Assembly: GCA_949297185.1 (NCBI GenBank)
Contig: CASFRM010000006.1
Span: 16,374 to 80,373, forward strand
Direction: 5' to 3'
Length of the DNA stretch: 64,000 bases
Origin: an uncultured Pseudomonadota bacterium
GTDB lineage: Bacteria > Pseudomonadota > Alphaproteobacteria > RF32 > CAG-239
This document shows, piece after piece, positions 34,501 through 62,362 of the stretch; position 1 is the first letter of the stretch, and each line of letters opens with the position of its first letter. Below the pieces are notes generated by a model. The model made no database searches. It saw only the letters and a program-made list of their open reading frames with translations, and was not told where the DNA came from. A program made the position numbers and the translations under genes.

Positions 34501-34517
34501 AGATATAAAACAGCAAT

Positions 34518-34805: not shown

Positions 34806-34839
34806 GCCAAGCATTTATTGTTACTTTGGTTGTGTTTTT

Positions 34840-35244: not shown

Positions 35245-36112
35245 AATTTTGCTCTAAAAACTTCTTGATTTTCTCAAGGTTGCTTAATGCGTCAAAACGC
35301 CCCAGCTCATACATCTGCTTGACAATATCAAGGTTACGCTCCATCTTGCCGATTTTTATTTTTTTTGACGGTCGCAAAACTAAAGTGTTACCACTCTTTT
35401 CCTCTTTGGCAATATAATCGAGCTCTTGATTATACATAATATGCCTTTGGGCAATAGCTTTGGCAAACAAAGGATATTTACGATATACCAAGTTAGCCAA
35501 CCAACCGTTGTGCGCCGGAGGTTTGCGATAACCGTCCGGTCGGGTCAAAATCACGATATTACGGTTATATCCCATATTTTGAGCGGCCTCAAGCGGGATA
35601 CTGTCGCAAATGCCGCCGTCCAATAATTTTAGCCCGCCCACTTCAACGATTTGCGAAAAAAACGGTAGAGAAGCAGAAGCTCTGAGATAATTGATATTGT
35701 CACCTCTTAATGAAGGACAATGGATATATTCGGCTTTTCCGGTTTCGATATTAGAGCAGACGGCAAAAAATTTACATTTACTGTTTTCAAAAGCATCATG
35801 GTCAAACGGGTCGAGGATATCCGGCAACTCATGATAGCAGAATTCGGTATCAACCACATTTCCGGTTTTGAGCCAATTTTTAAGGCTCATAAATCTGGGG
35901 TCGTTGCCGTATTTAAGGTTATAACGGATTGAACGACCATTTTGTTCGGCCACATAAGTACAGCCATGTATAGCTCCCGCCGACACCCCGAATACGGCAT
36001 CAGCCATGATATTATTTTCAAGCAACACATCCAATACACCGGCGGTATAGATACCGCGTTTAGCCCCGCCTTCCAAAACCAATGCCGTCGTCATAATCAA
36101 TTCATCCTTCAT
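35243..36112 (-). CDS. Patatin-like phospholipase
   Basis: Oxyanion GGAKRG, nucleophile elbow GVSAG and catalytic DGG (LLDGGICD). Confidence 0.85.
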   Translation of the reverse strand: MKDELIMTTALVLEGGAKRGIYTAGVLDVLLENNIMADAVFGVSAGAIHGCTYVAEQNGRSIRYNLKYGNDPRFMSLKNWLKTGNVVDTEFCYHELPDILDPFDHDAFENSKCKFFAVCSNIETGKAEYIHCPSLRGDNINYLRASASLPFFSQIVEVGGLKLLDGGICDSIPLEAAQNMGYNRNIVILTRPDGYRKPPAHNGWLANLVYRKYPLFAKAIAQRHIMYNQELDYIAKEEKSGNTLVLRPSKKIKIGKMERNLDIVKQMYELGRFDALSNLEKIKKFLEQN

Positions 36113-36167
36113 ACTAAAAGAGCCCCGTCAGGTGCAACGAGGCTCAAGTAATTAATAAAACACGAGA

Positions 36168-36773
36168 CTAGTAATATACCCATGTAATATCCGGAGTGGC
36201 TTTATTTTCACCCTCAGGATAGCATAAACCGTCTGCGGCATCCATAGATAACGGCAATTCTGAGGATTTCTTGCCTTCGTCGCCAATTATCATTCCCATC
36301 ATGCCGTCAGAACCCCAATCAGCGGTAAGCATAGACATACATGCATCAGCAGTCAAACCTTCCATTTTAATATAAAAATACCCGTCTCCTTCAGCACCAA
36401 CATCAGTACAATCACTCTCACCACAAGCACTTACCGTGACTGCTCCGCCAAAAGCCCCATTCAACTCACCGCCATCAGCATCGGCAATCATATCTGCGGA
36501 AACCAAGTTAAATTTTGCAGCGGTGGCATTATCCAGACCATTATAAGTCGGACTGGAAGCATAGGCCGTACGCACATTCATAAGGGTCATTGTTATTTGA
36601 TCTTGAGCTTTTGTAAGTTTAAATTTTGCCATAGCCTTAGAATAACCGGCAATACCACCGACCGACAAGACGCCGACAATAGCCAACACACCAAGCATTT
36701 CGACCATCGAACGACCGGATTCATTTATTTTAGCACCTGATAACATTTTTTTATACTCCATAAAATTAAGCAT
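36168..36773 (-). CDS. Type IV (IVb-like) prepilin, analog of R64 PilS
   Basis: Class III signal: leader ending in G, then RSMVEMLGVLAIVGVLSVGGIAGY with Glu at +5. Four Cys in the C-terminal globular part. The true start may be the internal ATG at 36746. Confidence 0.7.
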   Translation of the reverse strand: MLNFMEYKKMLSGAKINESGRSMVEMLGVLAIVGVLSVGGIAGYSKAMAKFKLTKAQDQITMTLMNVRTAYASSPTYNGLDNATAAKFNLVSADMIADADGGELNGAFGGAVTVSACGESDCTDVGAEGDGYFYIKMEGLTADACMSMLTADWGSDGMMGMIIGDEGKKSSELPLSMDAADGLCYPEGENKATPDITWVYY

Positions 36774-36873
36774 TTCTAATTATCTATTATACACTCATGT
36801 TTGTTTTTATACAATTAAAAACTCCATTTAGGGACATTCTATACTCAAATAACTTAAAATAAAGTAAACAATC

Positions 36874-37464
36874 CTATTGTTCAAACCTAAAAATTACTTT
36901 ATTTACGTCGTCACAGACATCAGCAACATTATTTCGTTTTGCCGGCAAAGCAAACTCCTCGTTACTCCAGCTAAAAATCTGCTCAGATTTATTATTCTTG
37001 ATTACTAATTCGCTGACCGATAACCAAAAATCGTGTTCAAATTGATGTGAAGCCAAGGCTATACATTGTTTTTTATTTAAGTCGTTATAAGCAATTACAA
37101 AACTCCTCATTGACGGCATAACTGCCATACCGCTTTCATCAGCTCCAATCTCCACATCATTAGCAAAATATCCTTTTAACTTGCCGTTTTCTACCCGCAT
37201 ATCGGTCGGATAAAGCTTCTGATTTATCACTTCTTTTGTGCTTAAACCCCAAAAGTCCGGTCGCATCTTATAAGCCCCGCAGATGTTTTTTGCCAAAATT
37301 GTAACTTGATTACCGGCCTCAAAAGCGCCCACATTTTGCTGTCCGCGAACTATTGCTAATAAAGACAAGGCCAAGGCAAACACAATCACTGCCGAAATTA
37401 TGGCAACCTTCCATTGGCAAAACATTACCCACAAAATTGTAAAAAAGGCTTTTATCTTTCCCAT
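36874..37464 (-). CDS. Hypothetical bitopic membrane protein in the pilus operon (minor-pilin-like or PilM-like?)
   Basis: A single N-terminal TM (VAIISAVIVFALALSLLAIV) and a ~150-aa periplasmic domain with 3 Cys. Lacks a G/xxxxE prepilin site. Confidence 0.5.
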   Translation of the reverse strand: MGKIKAFFTILWVMFCQWKVAIISAVIVFALALSLLAIVRGQQNVGAFEAGNQVTILAKNICGAYKMRPDFWGLSTKEVINQKLYPTDMRVENGKLKGYFANDVEIGADESGMAVMPSMRSFVIAYNDLNKKQCIALASHQFEHDFWLSVSELVIKNNKSEQIFSWSNEEFALPAKRNNVADVCDDVNKVIFRFEQ

Positions 37465-37473
37465 AGTTTCACC

Positions 37474-38610
37474 CTAAGTTCCCATATTGCTTGTAATTTG
37501 GTCTTGCATGTCAAAGGTTCCCATAACCGCCCAAGCAATAACACCACCGATAGCCAACAATGCCACCATGTTAAGAATTCCGGCTTTTTCTTCAATGGTA
37601 TAAACCGATTCTTCCAGCCACTCGTTAGCCAGATTGTCCAAAGCTTCTTCAAAGTTATCTAATTCGGAGTATATTTTCAAATCGTCAATAATTTCCTTAT
37701 CCGGAAACACCAAGCCTGTTTTTGCCAAAGCTTGCCCCAAGTTATCACCGTTATTGACATAAACCAAAGTCTTATCAATTCGTTCTTTTAGATATTTGGT
37801 TGCATCACGCCGTAACGCACGCAATGCCGTAGAAACCGGAGTTCCCCCCTTAACCAAAGCGGCCATAGCCAACAACCAACTAATTCCGACGAAGGTTTTA
37901 TATAATGACCATGGCGGAATGTTGTCAAATACGGCTCTTATTTTTCCGGTCCATATACTGATGGTAAAATATATGACAGCCATTAATATAGGCAAAGAAG
38001 AAAAAGCGATTAACCAATTGTCTTTAATCCATGCCGACAAGTCAACCAAGTCTCTGGCAAGACCTGTCCATTTAACATTCGGAGCAGCATCAATCATTGG
38101 CGGCACCATGTACACACCAATAGCATAAATGATCAAAATTGCCATCATCATCAAAAAGCTCGGATAAGAAATTGCTCCGATGATAGGTCTAATCATTTTG
38201 GTCGAGCCCTCGGTAACTTTAATCAGGTTTAACAAAGCACCTTCCAAGTCTGATACATCACCTACCGAAAGCATCAATCTTTCTCTGTCCGGAGCCCAAC
38301 CTTTTAAAGCATCGGAAAAAGTATTACCGTTATTTAAGCTTCTTCCCCAAGCAGCAATGGCAATGGCCAATGGTTCCCCGGGGTTTTTTCCTCCGTTTGA
38401 TGCTCCATCGTGTAACATATCCAGAGCATCCATCAATGAAAAGCGGTTACGCATCAAAGAGGCAATTTTACGATAGAGCTTCAATCTGGTCTTACTTGCA
38501 AACATAATCATTAAGCGGGCGTACATTTCCTCGGCTTTGTTAAGATTACGCATCGCTTTTTGTAAAGATTTTGAGTTTTTTTTCTTACTTACCAGTTCTT
38601 CATCAACCAT
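37474..38610 (-). CDS. Type II/IV secretion platform protein (GspF/PilC family; analog of R64 PilR)
   Basis: 378 aa. Two T2SSF-like repeats and three TM segments. Operon position is directly after the ATPase. Confidence 0.85.
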   Translation of the reverse strand: MVDEELVSKKKNSKSLQKAMRNLNKAEEMYARLMIMFASKTRLKLYRKIASLMRNRFSLMDALDMLHDGASNGGKNPGEPLAIAIAAWGRSLNNGNTFSDALKGWAPDRERLMLSVGDVSDLEGALLNLIKVTEGSTKMIRPIIGAISYPSFLMMMAILIIYAIGVYMVPPMIDAAPNVKWTGLARDLVDLSAWIKDNWLIAFSSLPILMAVIYFTISIWTGKIRAVFDNIPPWSLYKTFVGISWLLAMAALVKGGTPVSTALRALRRDATKYLKERIDKTLVYVNNGDNLGQALAKTGLVFPDKEIIDDLKIYSELDNFEEALDNLANEWLEESVYTIEEKAGILNMVALLAIGGVIAWAVMGTFDMQDQITSNMGT

Positions 38611-38625
38611 TTTATCGCCCTCAAA

Positions 38626-40299
38626 CTAGTATACCGGACGCTGATCAAGCAATCCGCACCATCTTTCAACTTCGTCCAAATCAATAAGTCCTTTGAGCAT
38701 TCGCTCCATGGCAGCTTCTTTTAATGTTCTGCCGTTCAAATCCGATGTCCAATAATCGATTGCACGTCGTGTTTCACCCTTAATCATCAATTCCAAGAAT
38801 GTTGCATCCGGCAAAATAATCTCGGGCACGCACATACGCCCCTTAATACCAGTGCCGTTACAGAACTTACATCCCGGACCACGGACATAAGTATTTTCCA
38901 CACCAAAGTCACCCAAGGCCGTACGCAAACGACTAAATGACGGATCATTTTGTCTTTCTTTAACCGACATCCTGCAATGCGGGCAAAGCTTTCTGAATAA
39001 GCGTTGAGAAATCAACCCCTTAATCAATTCTGGGTCAAGCAGCTTAAAAGTTTCAACCCCCATATCTCTAAAACGGTTAATAATTGCCGGAGCAGAGTTT
39101 GCGTGTAGGGTAGACCACATTCCGTGACCTGACAAGGCACCTTGGAAAGTAAGCTGTGCTGCCGCTAAGGCTCTGATCTCGCCCACCATAATAACATCAG
39201 GGTCCGAACGCAAAGCTGCCGACAAAGCTTTGGTAAATTGTTCGGCCTTTTCTTCCTCGGTATTGGCGTTTGTAACCGGCATTTGTCTTGCGCCCGGAAT
39301 TGGGTACTCAGGAGGATCTTCCACCGTCAACAAATTAAGCTCATAATTTTTTTCTTGCAAAAGCTTAATCATATTTCTTTGCAAAGTGGTGGATTTGCCC
39401 GAACCGGTGGGGCCGGCAACGATGCTCATTCCGACCGGAACGGCGCGTAAACGATAAAATAAATCTTCTTCAAATTGACCAAAGCCCAGAGCCGCCAAAT
39501 CACCTGAACCATCAGGATTATCATCGGCATAAAGTAAACGCATAACCAAATATTGCGAGCCGAAAGCAATTGGGTTAAATTGCAAACGGATAGCCAATAC
39601 ATTATGTGGCAGCATCAATTTGCCCTTAGAACCTCTCAGCGGAGTAGAACCTAATTTCTGTGCTCCTTGGAATTCGTTTTGCGCATAGTTTGAGTCAGAA
39701 ATATCTGCCGAAGCAAAAGCTGCGCGGACAAATGATTCGCCCCATTCTTTATTATATTCCATCTCAACTTGCATCATACCGTTAACTCTAAACATAATTA
39801 CGGTATTATCAGCGACCACGACATGAATATCCGACACCTTTTTGCTTGCAGCTCTTGCCACCACATTAACAAAGTCTTTTTGCATTTGTAGTTGGTCAAG
39901 CTCTGCATCAGCCGAAACTTCTTCGGCAGCTTGAGCACGCTCGCCTATTGCGTAAATCGCATTTAATTCATTTTGCGAAACATATGTTGGTTTCGCAATA
40001 GCAACTTTCTTCTTACGAGCCAAAACCTCAAAGCTTAAAACTCGTCCGTCAAATTTATGGGCTTCTACAACCAAAAAACGGCCATCAGAGAATAAAGCCA
40101 AAAGTCTTCTGGTATCATCATTTACGGCCAGCGGTGAACCGGGTAGGGTAAGGAGCTTGTTATTATTAGAAAAATAAACCTCGGTTATTGAGCCTTTCTC
40201 AGCCTCCGATGCTTTATCAGCGTCTTCAGACACAGGAGCAGCCGAGGCTGGAGCCTCGGCTTGAGTTAAGTTTTTTTCCTGCTCTTCAGAATTTTCCAT
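38626..40299 (-). CDS. Type II/IV secretion ATPase (GspE/PilB family; analog of R64 PilQ)
   Basis: Walker A GPTGSGKST, Asp/His boxes, Walker B DPDVIMVGEIR, and a tetracysteine motif CPHC...CKFC. Confidence 0.92.
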   Translation of the reverse strand: MENSEEQEKNLTQAEAPASAAPVSEDADKASEAEKGSITEVYFSNNNKLLTLPGSPLAVNDDTRRLLALFSDGRFLVVEAHKFDGRVLSFEVLARKKKVAIAKPTYVSQNELNAIYAIGERAQAAEEVSADAELDQLQMQKDFVNVVARAASKKVSDIHVVVADNTVIMFRVNGMMQVEMEYNKEWGESFVRAAFASADISDSNYAQNEFQGAQKLGSTPLRGSKGKLMLPHNVLAIRLQFNPIAFGSQYLVMRLLYADDNPDGSGDLAALGFGQFEEDLFYRLRAVPVGMSIVAGPTGSGKSTTLQRNMIKLLQEKNYELNLLTVEDPPEYPIPGARQMPVTNANTEEEKAEQFTKALSAALRSDPDVIMVGEIRALAAAQLTFQGALSGHGMWSTLHANSAPAIINRFRDMGVETFKLLDPELIKGLISQRLFRKLCPHCRMSVKERQNDPSFSRLRTALGDFGVENTYVRGPGCKFCNGTGIKGRMCVPEIILPDATFLELMIKGETRRAIDYWTSDLNGRTLKEAAMERMLKGLIDLDEVERWCGLLDQRPVY

Positions 40300-40326
40300 T
40301 TTTCACCTTAATTAATCAAATCAAAG

Positions 40327-41664
40327 TTATAAAGGAGTAGATATTAAACCAGATCTGGAATTATTGTTGTTCACACTGGAAGCATTACTGCCCTGTGCTT
40401 GAGCAGCTTGCATTCTGGCAGCAACTTCAGGATCAAGCTGGAAGCCGGATGTTTCCATTGGAACTATGCCGCCGGCAGAAAAATAGAGGTAACTTTTACT
40501 GCTTCCTTTACTTGCTGCAACATAAGTTGTGGTAATTTCATCTACAATATGTCCTGATTGCAGAGCCGTTCCTTTTTTAACATAGAAAGAGACACCGCCT
40601 GTATTCAGTAATTTTGCAACCAATTCTCCACCTTGTCCTCTAATTTCGGTAACGGCATATAGTTGCGATAAATCAGTTTCCACCGGCTCATTGGCGGATT
40701 TTTCTGCGGAACTATCTTCGTCACTGTTGGGGGTGGCACTACCATTTGCAAAAGGATTATTTCTCATTTGCTCATTCTCTCTTTCCAGAGTTTCTGTTCT
40801 CTGGCGCAGAATGTCAATTTGGGCTCTCAGGTTCTCAGCATCTTTTTCATATTGATCAACCTTAGCCATAAAAGATTTTTTAGCATCGGTAGCTGCGGTA
40901 TTCAATGCCGTAACCTTTGTTTTCATGTCTTCCAAAAGTGCTTTTTTAGAATTTCTCAAGTCCTCAATTTGCTTATAAAATTTGGCATTATTTTCAATCC
41001 AGAGTTGGTTTTCTTCAAGCATTTTGTTTTTGTATGCTCCCAATACTCTTTCCTGACGCAAGGTCTCAAATTTTATATCCAAATCGCGTAACTTTTGTTG
41101 TTCAACCAAAACCTTCTGCTCTTGTTCTTTTTCAAAAGCCAAATTTTTAAGCTTTAGTTGCTCGATTCTCTCTTTTTCTTGCTGCAAAGCTTGGCGTCGC
41201 TGATTTTTTACGGCTTCAATCTCATTTTTAAGCTTTTCTCTCTTTAATTCCAAGTTCAAAAGAGCTGTTCTTTTTTCAATATCAGACATCTGTGAAAACA
41301 AATCAGTGCCCTCGGCAGTGGCGTTTTCCTGCTCTGCAAGCAGAGTTAACTCCTCAGCTCCGCCGTTGTTATTATCTTCCTCCACAATGTCAATTTCGCT
41401 GACCAAAACATCATTTGCCAGCGGTAAAGGAGCATTTGCAGACTGTTTTGGAGCATTGATAATAGGCAACTCTGGAGAAGTCTGCCCTTCTTCGGTTATA
41501 TTTGGAACTTCTTGTGCCGGCAATTCCATTTCTGTATCCAAGCCATCGTCAAACATAGCTTCTTCTGACAAAGAAACTAAACCCTGAGCCTTTACTTGTC
41601 CAGCCGCAAGCGCCAAAGAACAAAAGATTGTCGTCAATAATAAATTTAAATTCTTACAAGACAT
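40327..41664 (-). CDS. PilP-like pilus biogenesis protein with a long coiled-coil insertion
   Basis: Start reset to the ATG at 41664 (AAGGAG RBS 7 nt upstream). Signal peptide and a ~250-aa E/K/Q-rich coiled coil. The C-terminal beta domain (LYAVTEIRGQGGELVAKLLNTGGVSFYVKKGTALQSGHIVDEI) resembles PilP/GspC HR domains. Confidence 0.5.
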   Translation of the reverse strand: MSCKNLNLLLTTIFCSLALAAGQVKAQGLVSLSEEAMFDDGLDTEMELPAQEVPNITEEGQTSPELPIINAPKQSANAPLPLANDVLVSEIDIVEEDNNNGGAEELTLLAEQENATAEGTDLFSQMSDIEKRTALLNLELKREKLKNEIEAVKNQRRQALQQEKERIEQLKLKNLAFEKEQEQKVLVEQQKLRDLDIKFETLRQERVLGAYKNKMLEENQLWIENNAKFYKQIEDLRNSKKALLEDMKTKVTALNTAATDAKKSFMAKVDQYEKDAENLRAQIDILRQRTETLERENEQMRNNPFANGSATPNSDEDSSAEKSANEPVETDLSQLYAVTEIRGQGGELVAKLLNTGGVSFYVKKGTALQSGHIVDEITTTYVAASKGSSKSYLYFSAGGIVPMETSGFQLDPEVAARMQAAQAQGSNASSVNNNNSRSGLISTPL

Positions 41665-42988
41665 ATATAGCTCCTTCATAATGCCAAACATTATTGTCTG
41701 GTGAATAGGTTATCAGTCTAAACTCAAGACCTGAATATTTTGTTAACAATTTTGCCCACACAGTCGGATCATGTGGCGAACTAAAAGAAAACTTTAGCGC
41801 TCTAAACACTGTAGGCTGCTGAGTTGGAACTCTCGCCGCTGGCCCTTTACCCTTGGGGGCAGCTTGCGCGGGTGCACTAGTCTTAATTGTTTCTTCCGAC
41901 AAAGAAATCTGCAACCCCAATGACTGAAATTGATTGTTTATTTTATTACGCAAGTCGACCATATTATATTCCGGAGGGGATAATAATTGCGGTGCCGGTT
42001 CCAAGTTTATAGAGGCAGTAATATTGTTTCCGGTATTATCAAACTGGTATCCCGCAAACTTGATTCCCGATTTTTCTAAAGCGTCACTCATCCAATCCAT
42101 AATGCCGAACTCTCGTCTCCACGATGTCGCTACAAAGTTTTTTGAGCAGCTTATCAAACCAATATCCCATCCGGGAGGCATAATCTGCGCCAGCTGATTA
42201 ATTCCCTCAAAGCACCTATCCATAACCTCTGCTGGATTATTAATTTTTTCCCATGGTTTAGGAACTTCTTTAACCTCAACCGGTTGAATAACTTTCGGTC
42301 TAACCGGGACGGATACTGGTCTTTTAACCGGTGTAAAAAATATTTTATCAACCAAAGTTGAAACCAACCATAATCCAACGACGGCCGAAACCACAACAAC
42401 GGCAATCAGTTTAGAACCTCGTAGGCCTTTTATCTTCTGTAACTTGGCTTTGGCACCACGGGAAAGTAAATCGCCCAAGTCTGCATCTTCGGTGTCGTCA
42501 AGTCCCCACTCTGCCGGAGCAATTTTCTTACCCCAATCAGGCACTGCCAACATTGATAAGAACTGATTTTTTGCTTCTTCTTCATTCAAAAACAGCATAT
42601 CGCCGTCAGATAAGATGATATCATTACGAACGCATGTATACCACCAACCTTCTTGAGTTTTAAAAACCGCAACGAACGAAGATACATCGGATAAAGCTGT
42701 AACCAAAGCCACAATTGCTGATGATTGCCCTTTTTTAAAGCCTTCATGCGATACACAAATACCAAACTGAGGAGCTTTACCTCCTTTTATACAGAACAGA
42801 TCAGCACCTTCTAAGATACTATTTGAAGCATCTTCAACTTCCTGCAAATAATCCTTGGCATTTTGTAATGGCTGCCAGAACAAACTTGTAGCGTAACTAA
42901 TGCCATCGACATTAATTGATGTGCCCCAAGTCTTACGGGAGTTTCCTCCCTCTAAATCGTCATCTAACAGCTTTGCTTCATCAAGCAC
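41654..42988 (-). CDS. PilO-like (R64-type pilin accessory) protein
   Basis: 444 aa with a cytoplasmic N-domain, one TM (LIAVVVVSAVVGLWLV) and a periplasmic C-domain. Size and position (between secretin and PilP-like) match R64 PilO. The call rests on synteny only. Confidence 0.4.
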   Translation of the reverse strand: MLDEAKLLDDDLEGGNSRKTWGTSINVDGISYATSLFWQPLQNAKDYLQEVEDASNSILEGADLFCIKGGKAPQFGICVSHEGFKKGQSSAIVALVTALSDVSSFVAVFKTQEGWWYTCVRNDIILSDGDMLFLNEEEAKNQFLSMLAVPDWGKKIAPAEWGLDDTEDADLGDLLSRGAKAKLQKIKGLRGSKLIAVVVVSAVVGLWLVSTLVDKIFFTPVKRPVSVPVRPKVIQPVEVKEVPKPWEKINNPAEVMDRCFEGINQLAQIMPPGWDIGLISCSKNFVATSWRREFGIMDWMSDALEKSGIKFAGYQFDNTGNNITASINLEPAPQLLSPPEYNMVDLRNKINNQFQSLGLQISLSEETIKTSAPAQAAPKGKGPAARVPTQQPTVFRALKFSFSSPHDPTVWAKLLTKYSGLEFRLITYSPDNNVWHYEGAIYVL

Positions 42989-43010
42989 TTTTTTATCTCC
43001 TGCAAAGAAG

Positions 43011-44621
43011 CTAGTTCATAGTCATTCTGGTTTCCGGTGACAACGGAGTTTCCAAAACCACCGGTGTCAAAACAATAACCAAGATATTACGCTCTCTTGC
43101 TGCATTGGCATTTCCACCTAACAGAGAAGATTCTGCCGAGCCGGTGCCGGTTTTTGTAGTTTCGTCGGAAGTTTTTTCATATCCGGTCAAAATCAACGAT
43201 TCACCTGAACTCAGGGCAACTTCTTGAGTAAAGGCACGAGATTCAACTTTCGGGTTTTGAATATATTGGTTCTCATCTTCATTTCCGAAGCTTACCTTTT
43301 CAAGAGAAATCAAATCTGATAATGTCATATTAAACATAACCAACATTCTTCCGTGCTCCAAAATTCTAGGTAACACGTCCAAAGTGAAACCGGTTTCGAT
43401 TTCCTCTGTTGTAACAGAGATATCATAATTATCTCCATCGGTGCCGTTATTTGTCTTTGTCATCTCAGAAATGTAATTTTGTTTCTGCGTTACTTGAATC
43501 GGCGCTGGTTTATTATTCAAAGTAGTTACCGTACCGCTGGTGATCAGAGTGGTTCTGTTTTTCTTAGATATTGCCTGCATAATAGCATCGGCAGACCAAT
43601 TATCTTTTAATATACCCCAAGATATCGCATTAGACAAATCATCGGATGCCGCGATTCCTTGTGTTCCGGTAATTCCAACCGAAGTAACACCATCATCGAA
43701 TGTTGCCTTCAAATCAAGACCGTAAGAATCAGAATCACTTATTGTAACCTGCATAATTTTAACCGAAATTGCAACTTGTCTTGCCAAACGTGCATTTTGT
43801 TCATTAACATATTTAGCAACCAGCTTTATATCATTTGGTGTAGCAGTTAATGTAATTGTGCCGTCTGACGGTGAAACAGTCAATTTTGCATCAGAACCGA
43901 TCATTGAAGAGATGGTTTTTTCAAACTGTGTCCACATTTCAACATCAATTGAAGATGTTAAACTGATAGACGAAGAACCTCCGCTTCCCGAAGCAGAACC
44001 ACCGATATTAACATTCATATTCGGCTTGGTCGGCAAAGAGTACATAACAAAAGTTTTGGTAATAAAACGATAGAAATAAATATCTTTATTGTCATATTTC
44101 CACCAAACACCAAAGCGCGAAGATACTTCATCCAAGAAACCGCTCAAAGGTCCTTGATACGAAACCATCATGGTATCAGGAGAAGCCCATTCACCTCCGG
44201 TCGGCAATAAAGACGAAGGCTTGTTGCTTTCACCTTTTGCTCTAACATCTGCTTCCAAATCATAAGAATATCTTATTCCAAGTCCGGTAGTACGATTGAG
44301 CATATCACCGATTTCATACAAGCTTATAGGTCTGTTAGAAACCAAAGTTATACCGTCATTTTTCTCCAAATAAGAAGGCAACGGCTCACCCTCATACTCA
44401 ATTTTACTGGTATTGCCCAACCAAATATCGTCATTAACTTTAACCAAATCTTGATTGGCAATTTTAGTTGGAGCTTTAGCTTCTTCGCGTAGTGTCGAAG
44501 CAGCTTCAATATTTTTCTCAACCACATCGTCCATCGTAGTAGAAACAGAGCATGAAGCAACAACGGTGATGGCGCAGATACTGGCACCTATCTTTTTCAA
44601 ATTAGTTATAAGCATTTTCAT
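43011..44621 (-). CDS. Secretin lipoprotein (analog of R64 PilN / BfpB-type)
   Basis: Lipobox VVASC. C-terminal secretin domain (TLITSGTVTTLNNKPAPIQV..., GFTLDVLPRI..., ERNILVIVLTPVV). The start is uncertain: TTG 44636, ATG 44621 or ATG 44615. Confidence 0.85.
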   Translation of the reverse strand: MKMLITNLKKIGASICAITVVASCSVSTTMDDVVEKNIEAASTLREEAKAPTKIANQDLVKVNDDIWLGNTSKIEYEGEPLPSYLEKNDGITLVSNRPISLYEIGDMLNRTTGLGIRYSYDLEADVRAKGESNKPSSLLPTGGEWASPDTMMVSYQGPLSGFLDEVSSRFGVWWKYDNKDIYFYRFITKTFVMYSLPTKPNMNVNIGGSASGSGGSSSISLTSSIDVEMWTQFEKTISSMIGSDAKLTVSPSDGTITLTATPNDIKLVAKYVNEQNARLARQVAISVKIMQVTISDSDSYGLDLKATFDDGVTSVGITGTQGIAASDDLSNAISWGILKDNWSADAIMQAISKKNRTTLITSGTVTTLNNKPAPIQVTQKQNYISEMTKTNNGTDGDNYDISVTTEEIETGFTLDVLPRILEHGRMLVMFNMTLSDLISLEKVSFGNEDENQYIQNPKVESRAFTQEVALSSGESLILTGYEKTSDETTKTGTGSAESSLLGGNANAARERNILVIVLTPVVLETPLSPETRMTMN

Positions 44622-45324
44622 CCTCCCTTGTTTCAACTACTAAGACACGGTTTCCTTTATAAAAAGTAGCCATGGGCGCAGGTTTTGCTCTGGCAAAATT
44701 TCTGATTAATGCCGAAGACACATCAGCAAATCTTCCTCTAAACATAGCTCCTGCAGCTAAAGTATAATTTCTGTTAGAATTCCATACCAATCTCCAACCG
44801 GATCTTTCGCACCAGTCAGAAAGTAGACCTTTCAAAGTGCTGCCTTCTTCCGCAAGCCAATCCTCGACTGCGTCGTCCCCGCTGTTATACTCAGCGTCGC
44901 TGGCATTTGCGGTTTCAGCTTCGGAAATAGCCTCGTTAACAGCTTCTTCGTAATCTGTAACTTCTTCATCTATTGTCGGAGGAATTGCAGCAGCCATATT
45001 GCTCCCGACACCGTTAGACAAGATGTACTGATCTGTAACACTTCTTTCGCCGAATTCACGATAATCAGCATCAGTCATTCTATAATCAACAAAACGGTCG
45101 TTAGCATTGTTCTGCGCGGTGGGCGTGATGGTGGGTGCCGGTTGATTTCCTTCTTGGGTGTAAATTACCACTTCCTCTACCGGCGCTTCCTCATCATTCC
45201 ATGGTAAGCTCCAAAGAGTATATGTATTGCTACATCCGCTAAGAGCAATAACAGACAATACCGCCAGAAGGCAATTCTTTTTTAAGTACATCTTTGCAAT
45301 CCTTTGAATAGATTTTCCCATCAT
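44602..45324 (-). CDS. TcpQ/PilL-like pilus lipoprotein
   Basis: Lipobox LSGC. The C-terminal STLKGLLSDWCERSGWRLVWNSNRNYTLAAGAMFRGRFADVSSALIRNF matches the TcpQ (toxin-coregulated pilus protein Q) / R64 PilL domain pattern. Confidence 0.7.
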   Translation of the reverse strand: MMGKSIQRIAKMYLKKNCLLAVLSVIALSGCSNTYTLWSLPWNDEEAPVEEVVIYTQEGNQPAPTITPTAQNNANDRFVDYRMTDADYREFGERSVTDQYILSNGVGSNMAAAIPPTIDEEVTDYEEAVNEAISEAETANASDAEYNSGDDAVEDWLAEEGSTLKGLLSDWCERSGWRLVWNSNRNYTLAAGAMFRGRFADVSSALIRNFARAKPAPMATFYKGNRVLVVETREDENAYN

Positions 45325-45378
45325 ATTTTCCTTATCATACTATTGAAAAATAAATAATCAAGCACCGTCAAACAGTTA

Positions 45379-47046
45379 TTACCATTGTATATGCTGTGGC
45401 GAGTTTATTGTATTTATTTTTCCGTTTGTTCCTCCTTTGTTTTTGCTTTTTATTGTTCGCAAAACAAAACTATTTGGCTCTCGCGAGGTAAACACTGTGT
45501 TTATTTTCGCGTAATCAAGCCCCTTATTGGTTAAAATGTTATACAGCAGGTTAAGCCTCTTCTGTTGTAGGTTTGTTGAGCTGGTGCCGTCAATGCGTAT
45601 CTCCAATGCTGCATCCGGTGTCTCCGCAATTTTTCCGGCAAACGCCTGTACCCAACGCAAGGTTTGTCCTGAAATTTCGGCTCGATTTGGCTGAAACGAA
45701 AGTCTAATTTCTGTCGGCATTATCGATAGCCTTTTTGTGACTTTGCCTTTTTGAGAAATAGATCTTTTGATTTTTGCTTTAGCCAAGGCGCGTTCTTTTG
45801 CTTGGTTTATCTCCTCTTCGGAGCTTTGCTTGCCAAATACGGAGTTTAGAGCCCGTAAAATTGTAGGCTTTTCTTCTTTCGCCGGTTCTGCCTTTTTTTG
45901 TTTATCCTCGACCAAGGGCTGTTCTTTTGTCTTTTCAGCATCCGAAGGGGGTGTTGTGAGTTCCTCTATGTCTTCATCTTCAATAGCGGACAATAGGGCG
46001 GTATTTCTTTTTTCTGAATGTTCTTTGGCTTCTTTGATTTTTTCTTGGTTTTTTATTTTTGCTTCAATAATTTTCTCTTTCTTGGCATCTTCCGAAGTCG
46101 CAGGATATGCAAGCGTGGGGGTCAGATTTTCATCTTTTATTATTTCTTCTGGTATTGGTATAATAAGATTTTTTACTGTCTCGGCTGCAACTTTTACTCC
46201 GCCTTCTTTTATTTCTGGAGACAGGTGTTTTTTGATTTCGTCATTCGTTGCCTTTGAGGATAACCTGTTTTTTGATTTTCCTCCTATTTGAGCAACTTCC
46301 CAAGGTGAATCTTTTAACGACTTCCATTCTTGTTGCTCAACAGCTTCGTCTTTTTCAGTAGATGATTTTTTTAATTCTTTTTCCATGCTTTCTATAGGAA
46401 TGTTTTTTTCATTCAAAGCCACATGGTTAAGCTTCTGGGGGTCACCGATTTTAATCTGTTTGTCGGCCAAAAGTATTTTCTGCTGTTTATCATCCTGCAA
46501 AGGTATTGAAATGTCATCATATTTTACAACATTTTTCTTAGGTAAAAGTTGTTCTTCTTGTTCGCTCCCGTTATAAACCTTTGCTGCAACTATTTTTACA
46601 TCTGCTTTCTTTTGAGGCGCGGTTTGTGGTGTGTATACAGCCTCGGTCTCAATCTTAGGACTTTCCAAAGGTTTATCTGGCGAGTACAGCACATCAGCTA
46701 ATATAACCTTGTTATTATCCTCAATTTTTTCTTCTATCGGATCAATGCTTCGTTCGATTTCCAGCGGAAAATCAAAATTGTCTAATGTATCTGCCAATAT
46801 CACCTCATGGGATTTGTCGTCTAGAGGTTGTTTGGTGACTTCGGGCAGCACATTAAGAGCAATTTTTTTTACGGGATAAGGCGAAGCGGAAGTGTCTTTT
46901 AAGAATAGCACAATGCTTTTATCTTTAATGTCAAGGGGTTGAATTTCAGTGGGTTTTTCATACCAAAAAGCCCTGTTTGCAGCCATTATAGCAAACAGAG
47001 ATACCGAAAAACTGTAAGCAAAAGCTTTAAGAACTGTTTTTGGCAT
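45379..47046 (-). CDS. Hypothetical first gene of the pilus operon (555 aa; K/E-rich, possible degenerate OmpA/MotB-like C-terminus)
   Basis: Start set at ATG 47046 (AGAGGGG RBS). N-terminal TM or signal sequence, a long K/E/P-rich region with VILAD-x-L repeats, and a C-terminal ~110 aa (EIRIDGTSSTNLQQKRLNLLYNILTNKGLDYAKI) weakly OmpA_C-like. Confidence 0.6.
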   Translation of the reverse strand: MPKTVLKAFAYSFSVSLFAIMAANRAFWYEKPTEIQPLDIKDKSIVLFLKDTSASPYPVKKIALNVLPEVTKQPLDDKSHEVILADTLDNFDFPLEIERSIDPIEEKIEDNNKVILADVLYSPDKPLESPKIETEAVYTPQTAPQKKADVKIVAAKVYNGSEQEEQLLPKKNVVKYDDISIPLQDDKQQKILLADKQIKIGDPQKLNHVALNEKNIPIESMEKELKKSSTEKDEAVEQQEWKSLKDSPWEVAQIGGKSKNRLSSKATNDEIKKHLSPEIKEGGVKVAAETVKNLIIPIPEEIIKDENLTPTLAYPATSEDAKKEKIIEAKIKNQEKIKEAKEHSEKRNTALLSAIEDEDIEELTTPPSDAEKTKEQPLVEDKQKKAEPAKEEKPTILRALNSVFGKQSSEEEINQAKERALAKAKIKRSISQKGKVTKRLSIMPTEIRLSFQPNRAEISGQTLRWVQAFAGKIAETPDAALEIRIDGTSSTNLQQKRLNLLYNILTNKGLDYAKINTVFTSREPNSFVLRTIKSKNKGGTNGKINTINSPQHIQW

Positions 47047-47247
47047 AAGACAAACCCCTCTAAAGTCTAGATAAATCAAAATGCGACTCTTGGCAATAGC
47101 GGCATAAAAAAATCCACAAATTTTTAGAAAAAAATAAAAAATTTTGTTGAAATAAAAAAATCAAAAAATTGTAACACTTTTTAAGTAATTTATATGTTAT
47201 AATTTCTTCAATAGGATAAATTTGTCCCATAAGCTTGGCGAAAAACG

Positions 47248-49329
47248 ATGAAAAAAAGCAGACAAAACATACTAAAAATAGCCTTTGCAGTATTGCTATT
47301 TAGCATTACGATACCGACATTTGCGTCTGCTCAAACTTTTGAAGCTCAATCCGCCGCCGAGTTTGCCAAAGGCCACGGAGGAATGGAATATCTTGAGATT
47401 CTTGATAAAAGCTCTGGCTCGCGCAAAATAATTTGCGGAGACAACGATACAGTTTGTGATGGCAATACGCAAGTTTGCTTGAGGTGCAGACACATCGCTT
47501 CAAAAAAAGAATTTGGAAAAGCTTGGGAAACATACAGAAAAGAAGAAGATTGGTCCAGATGTGTTTCTAAACAAGACGTTGCTGTTGATGATTTATATAC
47601 TGTTTGGCCGGAATGTACACCTTTCAATACCTCTGTGGAGAGTTTTTTTGGGACGGTAATAGATACGGATCAGCAATTTCTTGTGATAGAACCGAATGGT
47701 TTTTTGTCAGAAAACATGCACAAGGAATTAGGGATAACATGGAGTAAAGAAAAACACCCCTTTACTGACAGTCAAGGCAGAAGTTATAACTTGATAATGT
47801 CAGGAGATACTTCTATTGCCTATGGTGGCGGTTCTTTCTCTGGCTGTGAAGTTTTGCCTGTTAAGCTCTATAATATGCAAAAATGTTTTTTCTGCCCGCT
47901 GACTGCGGTTGTTTTCGGAACTTCCAATAATGTGACTATCCATTCTTTTGACACATTTGCAGCCCCGTTTGCTACCATAGTAGGTCTTCTTTTTGCTCTA
48001 TGGCTTGCCTTGCATGCGCTAAAACAAGTTTTCCCGATGACCAAACAAGATGCTCCAAAATTCCTGTCAGCTATCGTCAAGCAAGGTTTTAAGGTCGCGC
48101 TGGCAATTCTACTTCTCACGCATTCTTCCGATTTGTTTCGCTATTTCATAATTCCTGTTTTGGATGGCGGATTACAAATGGGACAGCAAATAATATCAGC
48201 AAAATTGCCTGATGACACCAAGGCAGCAGAGCCTATTACCACCACCACAATGCAATATTTTAATCTCAGAACCGGAGGAAGTGATGAGGCTCCGCGAACA
48301 TTGTATAGCGATATAGAATATTATCTGAGATCTGTTCAATATCAGCTCTCCTATATGCAAGCAATCGGAACCTCGTTATTTTGCGTCGGCAGCAAGGAAG
48401 CTATTGCAATAGATGCAGAAAAGATCGTTTCAGGGCTGAGAATGGTAGTTCTGGGGGCAATATTTGTTATTTTCGGATTTTTGCTGACAATAACCTTTGC
48501 TTTTTACTTTATGGACGCGTTGTTGCAGCTTGCTATCATCGGAGCGATGATGCCGCTGATGATTGCCGGATGGCCTTTTCGAGCAACCGGACAGTATGCT
48601 TCAACGGGATTTAAAATGCTCTTAAACACATTTTTTGTAATGTTCTTTACCGGATTTGTAGTTAGTGTATGTTTTGAAATCCTTAACCAGTCGATGGTAT
48701 TTGCTCAACGATCAAAAGAAGATTCAACGGCATTGCAAGATGCAATGGGGTATGGCTTTGACAAAATAGCCGCCGCTATTAATGAGCAAAATATTGAGGC
48801 GTTATACCAGGCTACGGAAATTGGCGGCATAGGATTTTTATTGATAATATTCTCTTGTCTTATGGGATATAAATTTGTTTCACAAGTAAATCCGTTAGCC
48901 AACAAACTGGCTTCAGGCGGAGCCTTTGCCGGCATGACCGGAAAAATAGGAACAATGGCCGCTTCCACAGTCAAAGGAATGGCAAATAAAGTCTCCCAGC
49001 CATTGGGTAATGCTGTTGCCAATAAATACCACGATGCCGGTGGTTTGGTTGGAATTGTCGGCGGTGCGGCATCAGAAGTTAGTGGCGGAGTAAAGGCTAT
49101 TGGCAGTGGCGTTCAAAAGGTCGGAAGCGGTATAAGTAAAGCCGGAAAAACTTTGGTCGCCGGAGGCGGCGTCATAGGCAAGGCCGCCGGTGCAGCCATG
49201 ATGGGGGTAGGTGCAGCTACCCAAGCTGCCGGAGCTGCAACCAAAGCCGCAGGAACAGCTACTCAAAAGGTGAGCGATGTAGCCAAAGAAGGAGCCAAAA
49301 AAGTCCATAGTGCATACGAAAGAAAGTAG
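47248..49329 (+). CDS. virB6: TrbL/VirB6-like polytopic T4SS membrane protein
   Basis: Signal peptide, a Cys-rich periplasmic N-domain, at least 6 TM helices and a G/A/K-rich C-terminal tail, as in TrbL/VirB6 and the enlarged rickettsial VirB6 paralogs. No sequence search was done. Confidence 0.5.
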   Translation: MKKSRQNILKIAFAVLLFSITIPTFASAQTFEAQSAAEFAKGHGGMEYLEILDKSSGSRKIICGDNDTVCDGNTQVCLRCRHIASKKEFGKAWETYRKEEDWSRCVSKQDVAVDDLYTVWPECTPFNTSVESFFGTVIDTDQQFLVIEPNGFLSENMHKELGITWSKEKHPFTDSQGRSYNLIMSGDTSIAYGGGSFSGCEVLPVKLYNMQKCFFCPLTAVVFGTSNNVTIHSFDTFAAPFATIVGLLFALWLALHALKQVFPMTKQDAPKFLSAIVKQGFKVALAILLLTHSSDLFRYFIIPVLDGGLQMGQQIISAKLPDDTKAAEPITTTTMQYFNLRTGGSDEAPRTLYSDIEYYLRSVQYQLSYMQAIGTSLFCVGSKEAIAIDAEKIVSGLRMVVLGAIFVIFGFLLTITFAFYFMDALLQLAIIGAMMPLMIAGWPFRATGQYASTGFKMLLNTFFVMFFTGFVVSVCFEILNQSMVFAQRSKEDSTALQDAMGYGFDKIAAAINEQNIEALYQATEIGGIGFLLIIFSCLMGYKFVSQVNPLANKLASGGAFAGMTGKIGTMAASTVKGMANKVSQPLGNAVANKYHDAGGLVGIVGGAASEVSGGVKAIGSGVQKVGSGISKAGKTLVAGGGVIGKAAGAAMMGVGAATQAAGAATKAAGTATQKVSDVAKEGAKKVHSAYERK

Positions 49330-50226: not shown

Positions 50227-50232
50227 TTCCTT

Positions 50233-53724: not shown

Positions 53725-53867
53725 AAAACGATTCTTTTTATATTCACGAGGCAAAGACTGCTAAAAATGCCGTTTAGAAATTTTTAAGGTCTGTGAATTT
53801 TTTGTTACAGCAAAAATAATTAAGTGTAAACAATATGTTAACCATTTTTTGTTAAGAGTGTTTTTGC

Positions 53868-53882
53868 TGGCAAAATTTGCCA
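53868..53882. promoter_or_regulatory. Perfect palindrome TGGCAAAATTTGCCA upstream of the first virB2-like gene (candidate operator)
   Basis: A 7-1-7 inverted repeat 59 nt upstream of the ATG. A second palindrome, TTTTGCAAAA, lies at 53913-53922. Confidence 0.25.
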
Positions 53883-53940
53883 AAATTATGTATTCTAAAA
53901 GAGTAAATTAAGTTTTGCAAAATTTAAAAGGAGAAAGACT

Positions 53941-54282
53941 ATGCAATTTATAAAGAACAATATTTGGACCTTGTGTCTTGTAGTTTTGGCAGGTTTGTTT
54001 GCCTTTACTGGTGATGCAGCCGCTCAGGGTTCAGTAATGGAACTTGGTAAACAAAAAGCATTGAATGTGTTTACCTCAGTTAAAACAATTATTTTCATCG
54101 TTGGTGGTTTTGGTCTTGTAGGTATTGCCTTTGCCGCTATTTTCGGAAAAGTAAACTGGAAATGGTTTGCAGCTTTGGCTGTAGGTTTGGCAATTTTGGC
54201 TGCTGCCGGATCAATTGTTAACTACGCAACCGGTGATAGCATTAGTGGCTTTAACGATACCTTCTCGTCAGCTACTAACTAA
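53941..54282 (+). CDS. virB2: VirB2/TrbC-like T4SS pilin (paralog 1, canonical size)
   Basis: 113 aa. Signal peptide (…GDAAA/QG) and two hydrophobic helices separated by GKVNWKW. AAAGGAG RBS. Lies upstream of virB3-virB4. Confidence 0.7.
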   Translation: MQFIKNNIWTLCLVVLAGLFAFTGDAAAQGSVMELGKQKALNVFTSVKTIIFIVGGFGLVGIAFAAIFGKVNWKWFAALAVGLAILAAAGSIVNYATGDSISGFNDTFSSATN

Positions 54283-54295
54283 GGTTTTAGGTCAA

Positions 54296-54334
54296 GGCTT
54301 CGAGGCTTATGCAAAAGCCTCGGGGCCTAAGGCC
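54296..54334 (+). other. Stem-loop directly after the pilin gene (no T-run; possible mRNA-stabilising or attenuating hairpin)
   Basis: cgaggctt-atgcaa-aagcctcg core (54301-54322) with an extended imperfect stem, plus a ggcctaaggcc palindrome. Confidence 0.35.
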
Positions 54335-54430
54335 TAAATAAAAGAAGGCTGGATTTATTTTTATACAAGTAACGGTGTGCAAAAACAAACTCAGTCAATA
54401 AAAGCGAACTAAGGCAAATAGGAGGATAAG

Positions 54431-55108
54431 ATGTATAAGTTAAAAGACATATTAAAAGTGCTTCTTATAGCCTTGTTTGTTTGTGTTTACAGCGCCGGAG
54501 ATGTTTACGCACAGACTGATATGTGCGGAGGCCCGTGTCCAGAAGGAAGTGTATGTACTAAAACAATGTCAAATGTAAATGGTGCAGACGAATGGAGATG
54601 CGTGACCAAAGCAAAACCGACAGGAGATGTTAATACGGAAGGCCAAGGAGGTGCGACACAAAATGCCAACTTCTGCGGTACTGACGGCGGAGCGTTTTCT
54701 CAACTTGTAACTACCGGAGTTCTGATTTTCAAAAGATTACGCGATTTGATATATGTTGTAGCCGGTTTTGGTATTATAGCGGTAGCTGTCGGAGGATTCT
54801 TTGGTAACCTCAACTGGAAGTGGCTGGGCGCGATAATCATTTCGCTGGTGGTTATAGCTTCTGCCGGAGAAATTGTTGCCATGATAACAGGATGTAGCAG
54901 TTTTGATGGAGGTCTCATTACCAACACACTAACACATCCCACCGGCATGAGTACACAAGAATTTAATGATACCTATACCGAAAGAGTAAAGTTAAACAAG
55001 ACCATAGACTGGAACGACAGTATGGATGTTTATACTCCACCTAACAGTTCTAGTGCTGCCGAAGCAGCCATTGAAGAGACTGGTTTAGAAGAAAACACTG
55101 CAGAATAA
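54431..55108 (+). CDS. VirB2-like pilin paralog 2 with a Cys-rich N-domain and C-terminal extension
   Basis: 225 aa. Signal peptide and CGGPCPEGSVCTK...WRCV. The core LIYVVAGFGIIAVAVGGFFGNLNWKWLGAIIISLVVIASAGEIV aligns with paralog 1. Confidence 0.6.
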   Translation: MYKLKDILKVLLIALFVCVYSAGDVYAQTDMCGGPCPEGSVCTKTMSNVNGADEWRCVTKAKPTGDVNTEGQGGATQNANFCGTDGGAFSQLVTTGVLIFKRLRDLIYVVAGFGIIAVAVGGFFGNLNWKWLGAIIISLVVIASAGEIVAMITGCSSFDGGLITNTLTHPTGMSTQEFNDTYTERVKLNKTIDWNDSMDVYTPPNSSSAAEAAIEETGLEENTAE

Positions 55109-55143
55109 GATTATAAGGACGGATAAGGATACAGGAGGGAGCC

Positions 55144-59418: not shown

Positions 59419-59440
59419 AGTAAGTTAACTCATTATTCAT

Positions 59441-59491
59441 AAAACGGAAGTATGCTCTAACATAAAGTTGTGTAATACTTCCGTTTTTTTT
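59441..59491 (+). terminator. Rho-independent terminator between the giant gene and virB3
   Basis: 12-bp stem aaaacggaagta / tacttccgtttt with a 23-nt loop, followed by a T-run. Confidence 0.6.
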
Positions 59492-59589
59492 GAGCTTCAA
59501 ATAGGTGTAGGATAAAATTATTTGTATTGTTGCGAAAAAATAACGGATGTTTTATCATAACCTTGGCTGTAGTCTGAGAGATAATTGAT

Positions 59590-59880
59590 ATGCGAGAAGT
59601 AATATTAAAGGCAGTTGCTAATCCTCCCAAGATTCTGTGGGGTCCGTTTTTGCCGGTTCTGCTCAATCTCGGTGTGCAATTTCCGATAATGTTTATGTTT
59701 ATGGGGACATTTAATGTCAACCCGATATGGTTTATGGCATCCTTGGTTTTAGGGCATGTCATCAGTGTTTTTATGGGAATAAAAGAACCTCACATATCAG
59801 CCATGATACAGGCTTATGGTCAAAGCGCTAAAAAAACAACCAACCTCTATAAAGTAAAGGGGAATAAATTTGCACCCTGA
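59590..59880 (+). CDS. virB3: T4SS protein VirB3-like
   Basis: 96 aa with two TM helices. N-terminal LKAVANPPKILWGPFLPVLLNLGV resembles the VirB3 motif. Overlaps virB4 by 11 nt. Confidence 0.7.
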   Translation: MREVILKAVANPPKILWGPFLPVLLNLGVQFPIMFMFMGTFNVNPIWFMASLVLGHVISVFMGIKEPHISAMIQAYGQSAKKTTNLYKVKGNKFAP

Positions 59881-62299: not shown

Positions 62300-62362
62300 C
62301 AAAAGGCAGTTAACCTATTTAATCTACGCCGGAATTATGATAAAATATAGGAAAGTTGACCG

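Follow-up and report, generated by a model that had tools for sequence, protein, structure and literature searches.

Most of what is known of type IVb pili comes from enteric pathogens, in which Bfp, Tcp, Cof and Longus have been described, and from conjugative plasmids and islands. The subject here is a pilus operon of this type in a 64,000-nucleotide stretch of DNA, hereafter the window (assembly GCA_949297185.1, contig CASFRM010000006.1, positions 16,374 to 80,373), from an uncultured alphaproteobacterium of the RF32 CAG-239 lineage, in which the operon lies near the genes of a VirB-type type IV secretion system (T4SS). The Bfp system of enteropathogenic E. coli, carried on pMAR2/EAF, has its pilin gene first and an internal order of BfpG-B-C-U-D-E, corresponding to a TcpQ-like protein, secretin, PilO2, PilP, ATPase and platform, and it also encodes BfpP, BfpH, the minor pilins BfpI, BfpJ and BfpK, and BfpL. 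The systems of R64/IncI, PAPI-1 pil2, SPI-7 and Tfp7 share the order TcpQ/PilL-PilN-PilO2-PilP-PilQ-PilR-PilS with the pilin last and an association with a T4SS. Chromosomal type IVb copies with TcpQ in the PilL position and without pilU have been described for Tfp7 and PAPI-1 (PMC3984277). The closest annotated relative found is alphaproteobacterial and has the same order, being a cluster on the megaplasmid pBSY19_1 of Bosea sp. RAC05 that includes a PilT-like second ATPase and a PilV shufflon-type adhesin. Tcp of Vibrio cholerae, which is likened to the present locus by description, is a type IVb pilus with TcpQ as the secretin partner and no retraction ATPase.

Nine intact genes, co-directional and tightly packed, were located at 36168-47046 on the minus strand (36168-47079 for the open reading frames (ORFs) including a TTG start), and an ORF check confirmed the layout given in a first-pass annotation made from the sequence alone. 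From first to last the genes encode a proposed OmpA-like anchor, a TcpQ/BfpG-like lipoprotein, a PilN/BfpB-class secretin, PilO2, a coiled-coil PilP, a BfpD-like ATPase, a platform protein, an uncleaved pilin paralog and a PilS/bundlin-type prepilin (Table 1). The same annotation had named the locus a type IVb pilus operon, and the profile hidden Markov model searches that it suggested upheld this, with matches to TcpQ, Secretin, T2SSE, T2SSF and pilin models that favoured a type IVb pilus over a type II secretion system or a type IVa pilus. Placement with the latter two was not found. It is almost certain that the locus encodes a functional type IVb pilus machine, which is a variant of a known machine with unusual parts and reveals no new principle.

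Table 1. Features of the type IVb pilus operon and its surroundings in the window
Feature	Position	Strand	Basis or detail
Terminator-like hairpin at operon end	36120..36145	-	11-bp stem then TTTT, 23 nt past pilin stop; consensus match only
Major prepilin, PilS/bundlin type	36168..36773	-	Likely start ATG 36746; processing site G/RSMVEMLGVLAIVGVLS (slash marks the cut)
Uncleaved pilin paralog, 196 aa	36874..37464	-	Profile-profile comparison with pilin family
Platform protein, GspF/BfpE/PilR family	37474..38610	-	PF00482 (T2SSF) 91 bits, E 8e-26
BfpD-like extension ATPase	38626..40299	-	PF00437 (T2SSE) 219 bits; Walker A GPTGSGKST; tetracysteine Zn motif CPHC...CKFC
PilP-family periplasmic protein, ORF 454 aa	40327..41691	-	Likely start 41664 (445 aa)
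PilO2/BfpC-family bitopic inner-membrane protein, 444 aa	41654..42988	-	Pairwise alignment to annotated PilO2
PilN/BfpB-class lipoprotein secretin, 534 aa	43011..44615	-	Likely ATG; TTG ORF reaches 44636; lipobox VASC
TcpQ/BfpG/PilL-like lipoprotein	44602..45324	-	PF10671 58.2 bits (cut-off 27), E 8.7e-16; lipobox LSGC
First gene, 555 aa	45379..47046	-	Start ATG 47046; longest ORF 566 aa from TTG
Promoter-like motif TTGCCA-N17-TATCTA, then AGAGGGG ribosome-binding site	47067..47096	-	Upstream of first pil gene
Polytopic membrane protein, 693 aa, ~7 hydrophobic segments	47248..49329	+	Tentatively VirB6/TrbL-like; within separating block
virB2-proximal half of predicted ancestral control region	53775..53940	+	Conserved CTGTAACAAAAAATTCACAG and TAACATATTGTTTA motifs
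VirB-type T4SS operon start	53941..63691	+	virB2, virB2', 1424-aa protein, virB3-like, virB4, fast-evolving 442-aa protein
virB3-like gene	59590-59880	+	T4SS operon
virB4	59870-62299	+	T4SS operon

Among solved structures, the best match of the ATPase was BfpD (8dze) at 313 bits compared with 176 for PilF and 165 for GspE, and pairwise identities were 39% to the Bosea ATPase and 35% to BfpD. The platform protein was 35% identical to its Bosea counterpart, 33% to BfpE and 25% to IncI PilR. The secretin matched PF00263 and, among NCBIfam models, TIGR02520 ('PilN family type IVB') at 265.6 bits, which is below the curated cut-off of 287.65, with MshL (107 bits) and GspD (38 bits) as the runners-up. 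Its full-length identity was 28-29% to BfpB (29%), the Bosea protein (28%, 226 bits) and IncI PilN. The TcpQ-like lipoprotein, the predicted partner of the secretin, was 40% identical to Bosea TcpQ, 36% to BfpG and 29% to IncI PilL, scoring 70-73 bits against the Bfp and Bosea counterparts and 38 against that of IncI.

PilO2 had no Pfam match at E 0.01, and poor recognition by Pfam of its family (PF06864) is documented (PMC3984277). It was assigned from pairwise alignment to the Bosea pBSY19_1 PilO2 (25% identity at full length, 441 columns, E 4e-32) and to BfpC (E 3e-9), with a predicted topology of a cytoplasmic N-domain, a transmembrane helix near residues 195-213 and a periplasmic C-domain. 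The PilP-position protein has a signal peptide, an acidic linker, a coiled coil of ~125 aa and a PilP domain at residues ~345-400. The window copy reached 31.9 bits with TIGR03021 (pilP_fam), under the cut-off of 34.65, while all 14 of 14 diverse orthologs matched the model with a best E of 1.1e-11. The protein is thus a true PilP and not, as first annotated, a variant lacking any recognised counterpart, although the coiled coil noted at that time was confirmed and is conserved across the lineage. Neither BLAST nor hhalign detected significant similarity between this PilP and the Bosea PilP-position protein or BfpU.

The label 'R64-type' that had been attached to the operon was correct with respect to the gene order L-N-O-P-Q-R-S and the presence of a PilN-class secretin, PilO2, PilP and TcpQ, but not with respect to the sequences themselves, which are as close or closer to Bfp and Bosea. 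TcpQ, the secretin, PilO2 and the platform all scored higher against Bfp or Bosea than against IncI, and the Bosea cluster yielded the top scores for these four and for the ATPase. The R64 features PilV adhesin and shufflon, PilM, PilI/J/K, the PilT transglycosylase and PilU were missing from the locus, and the window contained no invertase. Relatives of R64 use an I-type or GI-type T4SS carried on mobile elements, whereas the T4SS here is VirB/Trb-like and inheritance is vertical. In comparison with Bfp, the pilin gene is last instead of first, its product is 23% identical to BfpA, and none of the additional Bfp genes listed above is present. Conversely, Bfp is without the OmpA-like first gene, the uncleaved pilin paralog, the coiled-coil PilP and any such linkage to a T4SS operon, and the Bosea cluster is likewise without the first gene and the paralog.

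A further Bfp-like feature was found in sister species only. A BfpF-like ATPase of 320-330 aa (33% identity to BfpF, E 3e-43) was encoded directly after the pilin in 45 related species, as in locus L074 (14239-15231) and in 44 other loci likewise, and was missing from the window and from every locus sharing the arrangement of the window. The clade of the window thus encodes no retraction ATPase at this site; its fibre is probably static, or else retraction proceeds without an ATPase dedicated to it.

The prepilin scored above the cut-offs of both PF05307 (32.4 bits) and PF08805 (31.5 bits), the Bundlin and PilS families respectively. Its processing site as read from the translation is G/RSMVE, with Arg at +1 and Glu at +5, and leaves a mature protein of ~180 aa; the N-terminus G/RSM[VI]EMLGVLAI[IV]GVLS was near-invariant in 66 of 69 species. 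The Glu at +5 had been recognised in the first-pass annotation along with a long leader. The latter now seems incorrect: the species share a conserved Met at -11, so that the leader is probably ~11 aa and not 20. A leader of ~11 aa is short for a type IVb pilin, a class in which 15-30 aa is usual. The major prepilin carries the only class-III signal in the window. At the related locus L051 (13403-14890) the pilin gene occurs as a tandem duplicate coding for 204 and 206 aa, and two genes are inserted after these pilins, one Fic-like by eye and one of 477 aa, followed by the BfpF-like ATPase.

The gene before the prepilin had been described as coding for a small bitopic protein, a label that is replaced here by that of pilin paralog. 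The protein combines a basic N-terminus and one transmembrane helix with a pilin-like globular domain, and hhalign of its family against the pilin family gave a probability of 99.9% (E 1e-34, 158 columns), with values of 94.6% for BfpA and 88% for PilS. Pfam PilS and Bundlin scores were slightly under the cut-off. A Gly(-1)/Glu(+5) processing site was found in none of the 45 orthologs read, and an AF2 model of the 196-aa protein had a pLDDT of 47, so low that its Foldseek matches were meaningless. A possible analogy for a role at the pilus base is TcpB of the Tcp system, the minor pilin that initiates both assembly and retraction (PMC5207764). TcpB, however, is processed as a class-III pilin, and the paralog is not.

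The first gene was assigned a start at ATG 47046 because a conserved promoter-like motif lies inside the 566-aa ORF that begins at TTG, and this start agreed with the gene calls on identical contigs and with the end coordinate given in the first-pass annotation. In its product, a hydrophobic stretch at the N-terminus is followed by a long, charged linker of low conservation and then by a C-terminal domain that the conservation profile shows to be conserved, and a conserved motif falls at residues 301-320 (566-aa numbering). As had been noted earlier, there was no recognisable sequence counterpart: Pfam, NCBIfam and PDB sequence searches gave no match, and profiles of the C-terminal domain were also blank in PDB and Pfam. 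A counterpart was suggested by structure prediction instead. The core of a single-sequence AF2 model of the C-terminal domain had a pLDDT of 75-87, and the top 50 of 50 Foldseek matches in PDB were OmpA/Pal/MotB peptidoglycan-binding domains, the best cited being OprF (5u1h, E 5e-6, TM 0.56). We therefore propose that the first gene product may be an OmpA-like peptidoglycan anchor. The family comprised 346 clusters among 1.84 billion proteins, and the same architecture was seen throughout the best 150 listed.

The same operon was found in ~80 species-level genomes of gut Alphaproteobacteria, with 264 relatives detected in total. All were gut-derived metagenome-assembled genomes labelled Alphaproteobacteria, under names such as 'Proteobacteria bacterium CAG:495', Candidatus Scatocola and 'uncultured Azospirillum sp. 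UMGS63', which we take to belong to the order RF32 of the Genome Taxonomy Database (GTDB). The nine ORFs were intact and their order was kept in ~70-80 of these genomes (nearly all of the 80 fetched), homologs of the ATPase were 77-97% identical in 80 species-representative genomes, and one single cluster of ATPase homologs was represented on more than 1000 metagenome contigs. Compared with the two closest relatives, eight genes had dN/dS ratios of 0.02-0.13 and the pilin gene had 0.22-0.38, and therefore the genes are under purifying selection, with the surface subunit evolving fastest. The earlier placement of the locus in the chromosome of a host-associated lineage was supported by the housekeeping genes in the window, which include dnaK, dnaJ, rpsA, cmk, yidC, rnpA and accD together with a flagellin gene and xerD. 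The pilus operon is chromosomally and vertically inherited throughout the lineage. A type IVb pilus is here a vertically inherited core feature of common uncultured gut Alphaproteobacteria, and no earlier description of a pilus or T4SS in RF32 or CAG-239 was found in the searchable literature.

The distance between the first pil gene and virB2 in the window is 6.9 kb (47046 to 53941), as first reported. The link to the T4SS is stronger than was seen at that time, however, as the two operons are divergently paired in most relatives. In 49 related loci virB2 was the next gene upstream of the first pil gene and pointed away from it, and in ~32 of the 49 the gap was 269-425 bp and carried conserved motifs. 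The conserved blocks of this shared intergenic region included the promoter-like motif and the palindromic CACAAATTTGTG, TAACATATTGTTTA and CTGTAACAAAAAATTCACAG, with CTGTAAC...CACAG also conserved as a palindrome. When the consensus built from 28 related intergenic regions was compared with the window, the motif upstream of the first pil gene was the one match, differing at 1 position, with 0 expected by chance. It is a predicted promoter that would form part of the pil-proximal half of an ancestral divergent pil/virB control region, a half retained in the window from 47047 to ~47135. Between the two halves lie ~6.6 kb, mainly of housekeeping genes, with the VirB6-like membrane protein gene, xerD, aroK, an MTA-nucleosidase-like gene, a phosphoribosyltransferase gene, luxS and a ROK kinase gene. 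The comparison indicates that the 6.9-kb gap in the window is a derived state and that the ancestral arrangement was back-to-back, while in three other species (loci L005, L006 and L008) the virB operon directly follows the pilin instead.

The gene next to the pil operon had been annotated as a divergent VirB6-like neighbour. The divergent gene is present, but its assignment to VirB6 is weak, as the 693-aa protein reached 18.4 bits with PF04610 (cut-off 25.9); five of eight orthologs matched the same model, all below gathering and with a best E of 5.6e-4, and a profile of the protein had no match in PDB. In relatives the T4SS operon continues past the genes seen in the window with five unassigned genes (one of ~1250-1330 aa in the VirB6 position), virB8, a 62-aa gene, virB8' and a 524-aa virB9. 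The nearest plasmid relative of VirB4 was 39.5% identical; it belongs to a conjugative-type cluster on a Microvirga plasmid, alongside a MobA/MobL relaxase and VirD4. Nearly all metagenome matches to the N-terminus of VirB9 were fragments truncated at contig ends, an indication that assemblies break at a repeat or hypervariable stretch within virB9.

Two observations concern the T4SS proteins themselves. The 1424-aa protein (55144-59418), encoded between virB2' and virB3, has a signal peptide, an Ala/Lys/Glu/Cys-rich helical region and a VirB2-like transmembrane hairpin at ~365-455 with 29% identity to Microvirga VirB2 (E 1e-10). It appears to be a third, giant VirB2-domain protein and is conserved yet fast-evolving in the lineage. 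The two VirB8 paralogs of the relatives (loci L085, 14872-21161, L087, L092 and L094) were 30% identical to each other.

A working model can be assembled from these parts. The prepilin, with its leader of ~11 aa, would be cut between Gly -1 and the residues leading to Glu +5 by an A24 peptidase presumably encoded elsewhere in the genome. By homology, the BfpD-like zinc-finger ATPase would drive the BfpE/PilR-like platform to polymerise the pilin, and PilO2 and PilP would link the motor in the inner membrane with the secretin and the TcpQ-like lipoprotein that accompanies it, the coiled coil of PilP possibly acting as a periplasmic spacer. The first gene product may tie the machine to peptidoglycan through its predicted OmpA-like domain. 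More speculatively, the uncleaved pilin paralog might stay in the inner membrane at the pilus base as a primer or stopper. The fibre would then serve in contact or adhesion and cooperate with the adjacent VirB-type T4SS, whether that system moves DNA or proteins.

Cooperation with the T4SS as a contact fibre is preferred because the divergent pairing is conserved, and the putative shared ancestral control region is reminiscent of conjugative type IVb pili and their T4SSs. We hold with moderate confidence that the locus is a type IVb pilus assembly machine of the core chromosome whose contact or adhesion fibre works with the adjacent VirB-type T4SS. Within the model, the biological role is where certainty is lowest, and several points weigh against this reading. 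Characterised type IVb pili generally use a minor pilin or tip adhesin, and no second ORF with a class-III signal that could encode either was found in the window. The 6.9-kb separation means that shared control may have been lost in this clade, and the argument for co-regulation and cooperation of the pil and T4SS genes is one of synteny. The T4SS operon of the relatives was read as far as virB9, a stretch that does not extend to any VirB10, VirB11, VirD4 or relaxase gene, and the OmpA-like assignment depends on one single-sequence model with a mean pLDDT of 66. Domain searches of the window agreed with the earlier statement that no prepilin peptidase, PilV adhesin, shufflon or relaxase was in view: a Peptidase_A24 domain was absent from ORFs of at least 100 aa, and tblastn with BfpP and IncI PilU found no prepilin peptidase in 1.7 Mb of related flanks. 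The pilin-processing step would hence depend on an enzyme encoded outside the regions searched. Loci without their own peptidase are known from PAPI-1 and B. pseudomallei Tfp7, for which use of the peptidase of another pilus system has been shown or proposed (PMC3984277). Given these cases, the missing peptidase is no novelty in itself.

A serious rival, though one to which we assign a clearly lower probability, is a stand-alone colonisation or aggregation pilus comparable to Bfp, Tcp, Cof and Longus, with the proximity of the T4SS being a leftover of an ancient mobile element. The core proteins resemble Bfp no less closely than they do the conjugative systems, a PilV-type recipient-recognition adhesin is absent, and the globular domain of the pilin is fast-evolving, with 26-65% identity in addition to the elevated dN/dS given above, as would be expected of a surface antigen. 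To judge from record titles, members of the lineage come from the guts of humans, ruminants, chickens, rabbits and mice, and in the clade of the window the two operons have been split with neither being lost. What such a pilus would leave unexplained is that the virB2 pairing and the intergenic motifs have been preserved in dozens of species although dS is saturated elsewhere, and that the operons remained within a few kb of each other after rearrangements.

A mating-pair-stabilisation pilus of a mobile or recently immobilised integrative and conjugative element (ICE), as in R64, PAPI-1 and SPI-7, is improbable. The gene order and the set of PilO2, PilP and PilN-class secretin are those of such elements, the nearest annotated pilus relative is on an alphaproteobacterial megaplasmid carrying PilV, and the nearest plasmid VirB4 is the Microvirga protein from the conjugative-type cluster mentioned above. 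Against this, the same locus and order are found in ~80 species with divergence tracking that of the species, and the sole recombinase in view is XerD, assigned at the equivalog level by TIGR02225 (330.6 bits, cut-off 329.6), with no other integrase present. The GC content of the locus (0.40-0.435) is the same as that of the flanks, no att-like direct repeats were found bracketing it, and PilV and a shufflon are missing. No relaxase or coupling-protein domain was detected in window ORFs of at least 100 aa, nor was either protein found in the flanks searched with the Microvirga proteins, where the T4SS operon was covered as far as virB9. On the strength of the XerD assignment, the conserved synteny, the native GC and the absence of att repeats, the ICE reading, which the first-pass annotation had named as a refuting case, was rejected.

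A pilus-like secretion device (a piston, as in the export of TcpF by Tcp) or a DNA-uptake device in place of an adhesin is very improbable: a tip adhesin and minor pilin are lacking, the uncleaved paralog could cap a short pseudopilus and a patatin-like phospholipase is encoded directly downstream in this clade, but the patatin gene is beyond the terminator-like hairpin and linked in 8 of 83 loci only, no conserved secreted-substrate candidate was found within the operon, and the pilin is of the large bundlin/PilS type.

Returning to the preferred reading of a contact fibre that works with the T4SS, a more far-reaching version is put forward only tentatively, namely that the pilus and an expanded VirB-like T4SS (three VirB2-like proteins, two VirB8 and proteins of 1424 and ~1280 aa) make up one co-regulated, two-organelle contact apparatus. 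If so, the pilus would catch host epithelium or a microbe and the T4SS would deliver effectors or DNA, and the apparatus would belong to the core traits of a widespread uncultured order of gut Alphaproteobacteria, perhaps even defining the lifestyle of that order. To our knowledge, a domesticated pair of pilus and T4SS with lineage-specific parts has not been described for commensals. The back-to-back wiring of pil and virB offers a testable hypothesis for how commensals with small genomes make contact with hosts or microbes. Clades with and without the retraction ATPase, and those with adjacent and split operons, provide natural comparisons for the cooperation of type IVb pili with T4SSs, and the anchor candidate, the unprocessed pilin paralog and the coiled-coil PilP are cheap targets for structural and genetic studies of type IVb pilus assembly.

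Other features of the window were noted beside the operon. The patatin-like phospholipase gene (35243-36112) also codes for a DUF6363 domain, and only in this clade is it found just downstream of the pil operon. Some secretion systems have patatin-like effectors; nothing here ties this gene to the T4SS. It was considered as the missing peptidase or a tenth operon gene and rejected on both counts, being a patatin/DUF6363 protein encoded past the hairpin and linked to the operon at only 8 loci. A lytic transglycosylase with an SLT domain (30324-31097) is encoded ~5 kb downstream of the pilin and showed weak similarity to BfpH, IncI PilT and IagB (E 0.002-0.006; NCBIfam E 4e-6). It was operon-linked in a few close relatives only; it might take part in the assembly of the pilus or the T4SS, but nothing supports this.

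An Rfam scan of the window returned two tRNAs only, and a PADLOC scan of the otherwise unassigned proteins returned nothing relevant. A truncated copy of tRNA-Val(GAC), comprising the 5' two-thirds (32334-32381), was located 250 bp upstream of the intact gene (32584-32630) and was not reported by ARAGORN; it could be the remnant of a rearrangement or of an old integration event. The ORFs at 5580-9140, 10568-11476 and 14322-15416 (1186, 302 and 364 aa) had no Pfam match at E 0.001. Within the flagellin gene (11701-13431), a central insert matched PF20585, a pectate-lyase-like adhesive domain (E 1.7e-5). Seven exact copies of a REP-like palindrome, TTCTCGGG-N5-CCCGAGAA, were present in the window compared with 0.01 expected. 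Six of these were in the ~1.1-kb gap (34237-35241) between the histidine-phosphatase and patatin genes, where they are associated with repeat units of 80-110 nt, and the seventh (11672-11692) was just after the flagellin stop codon.

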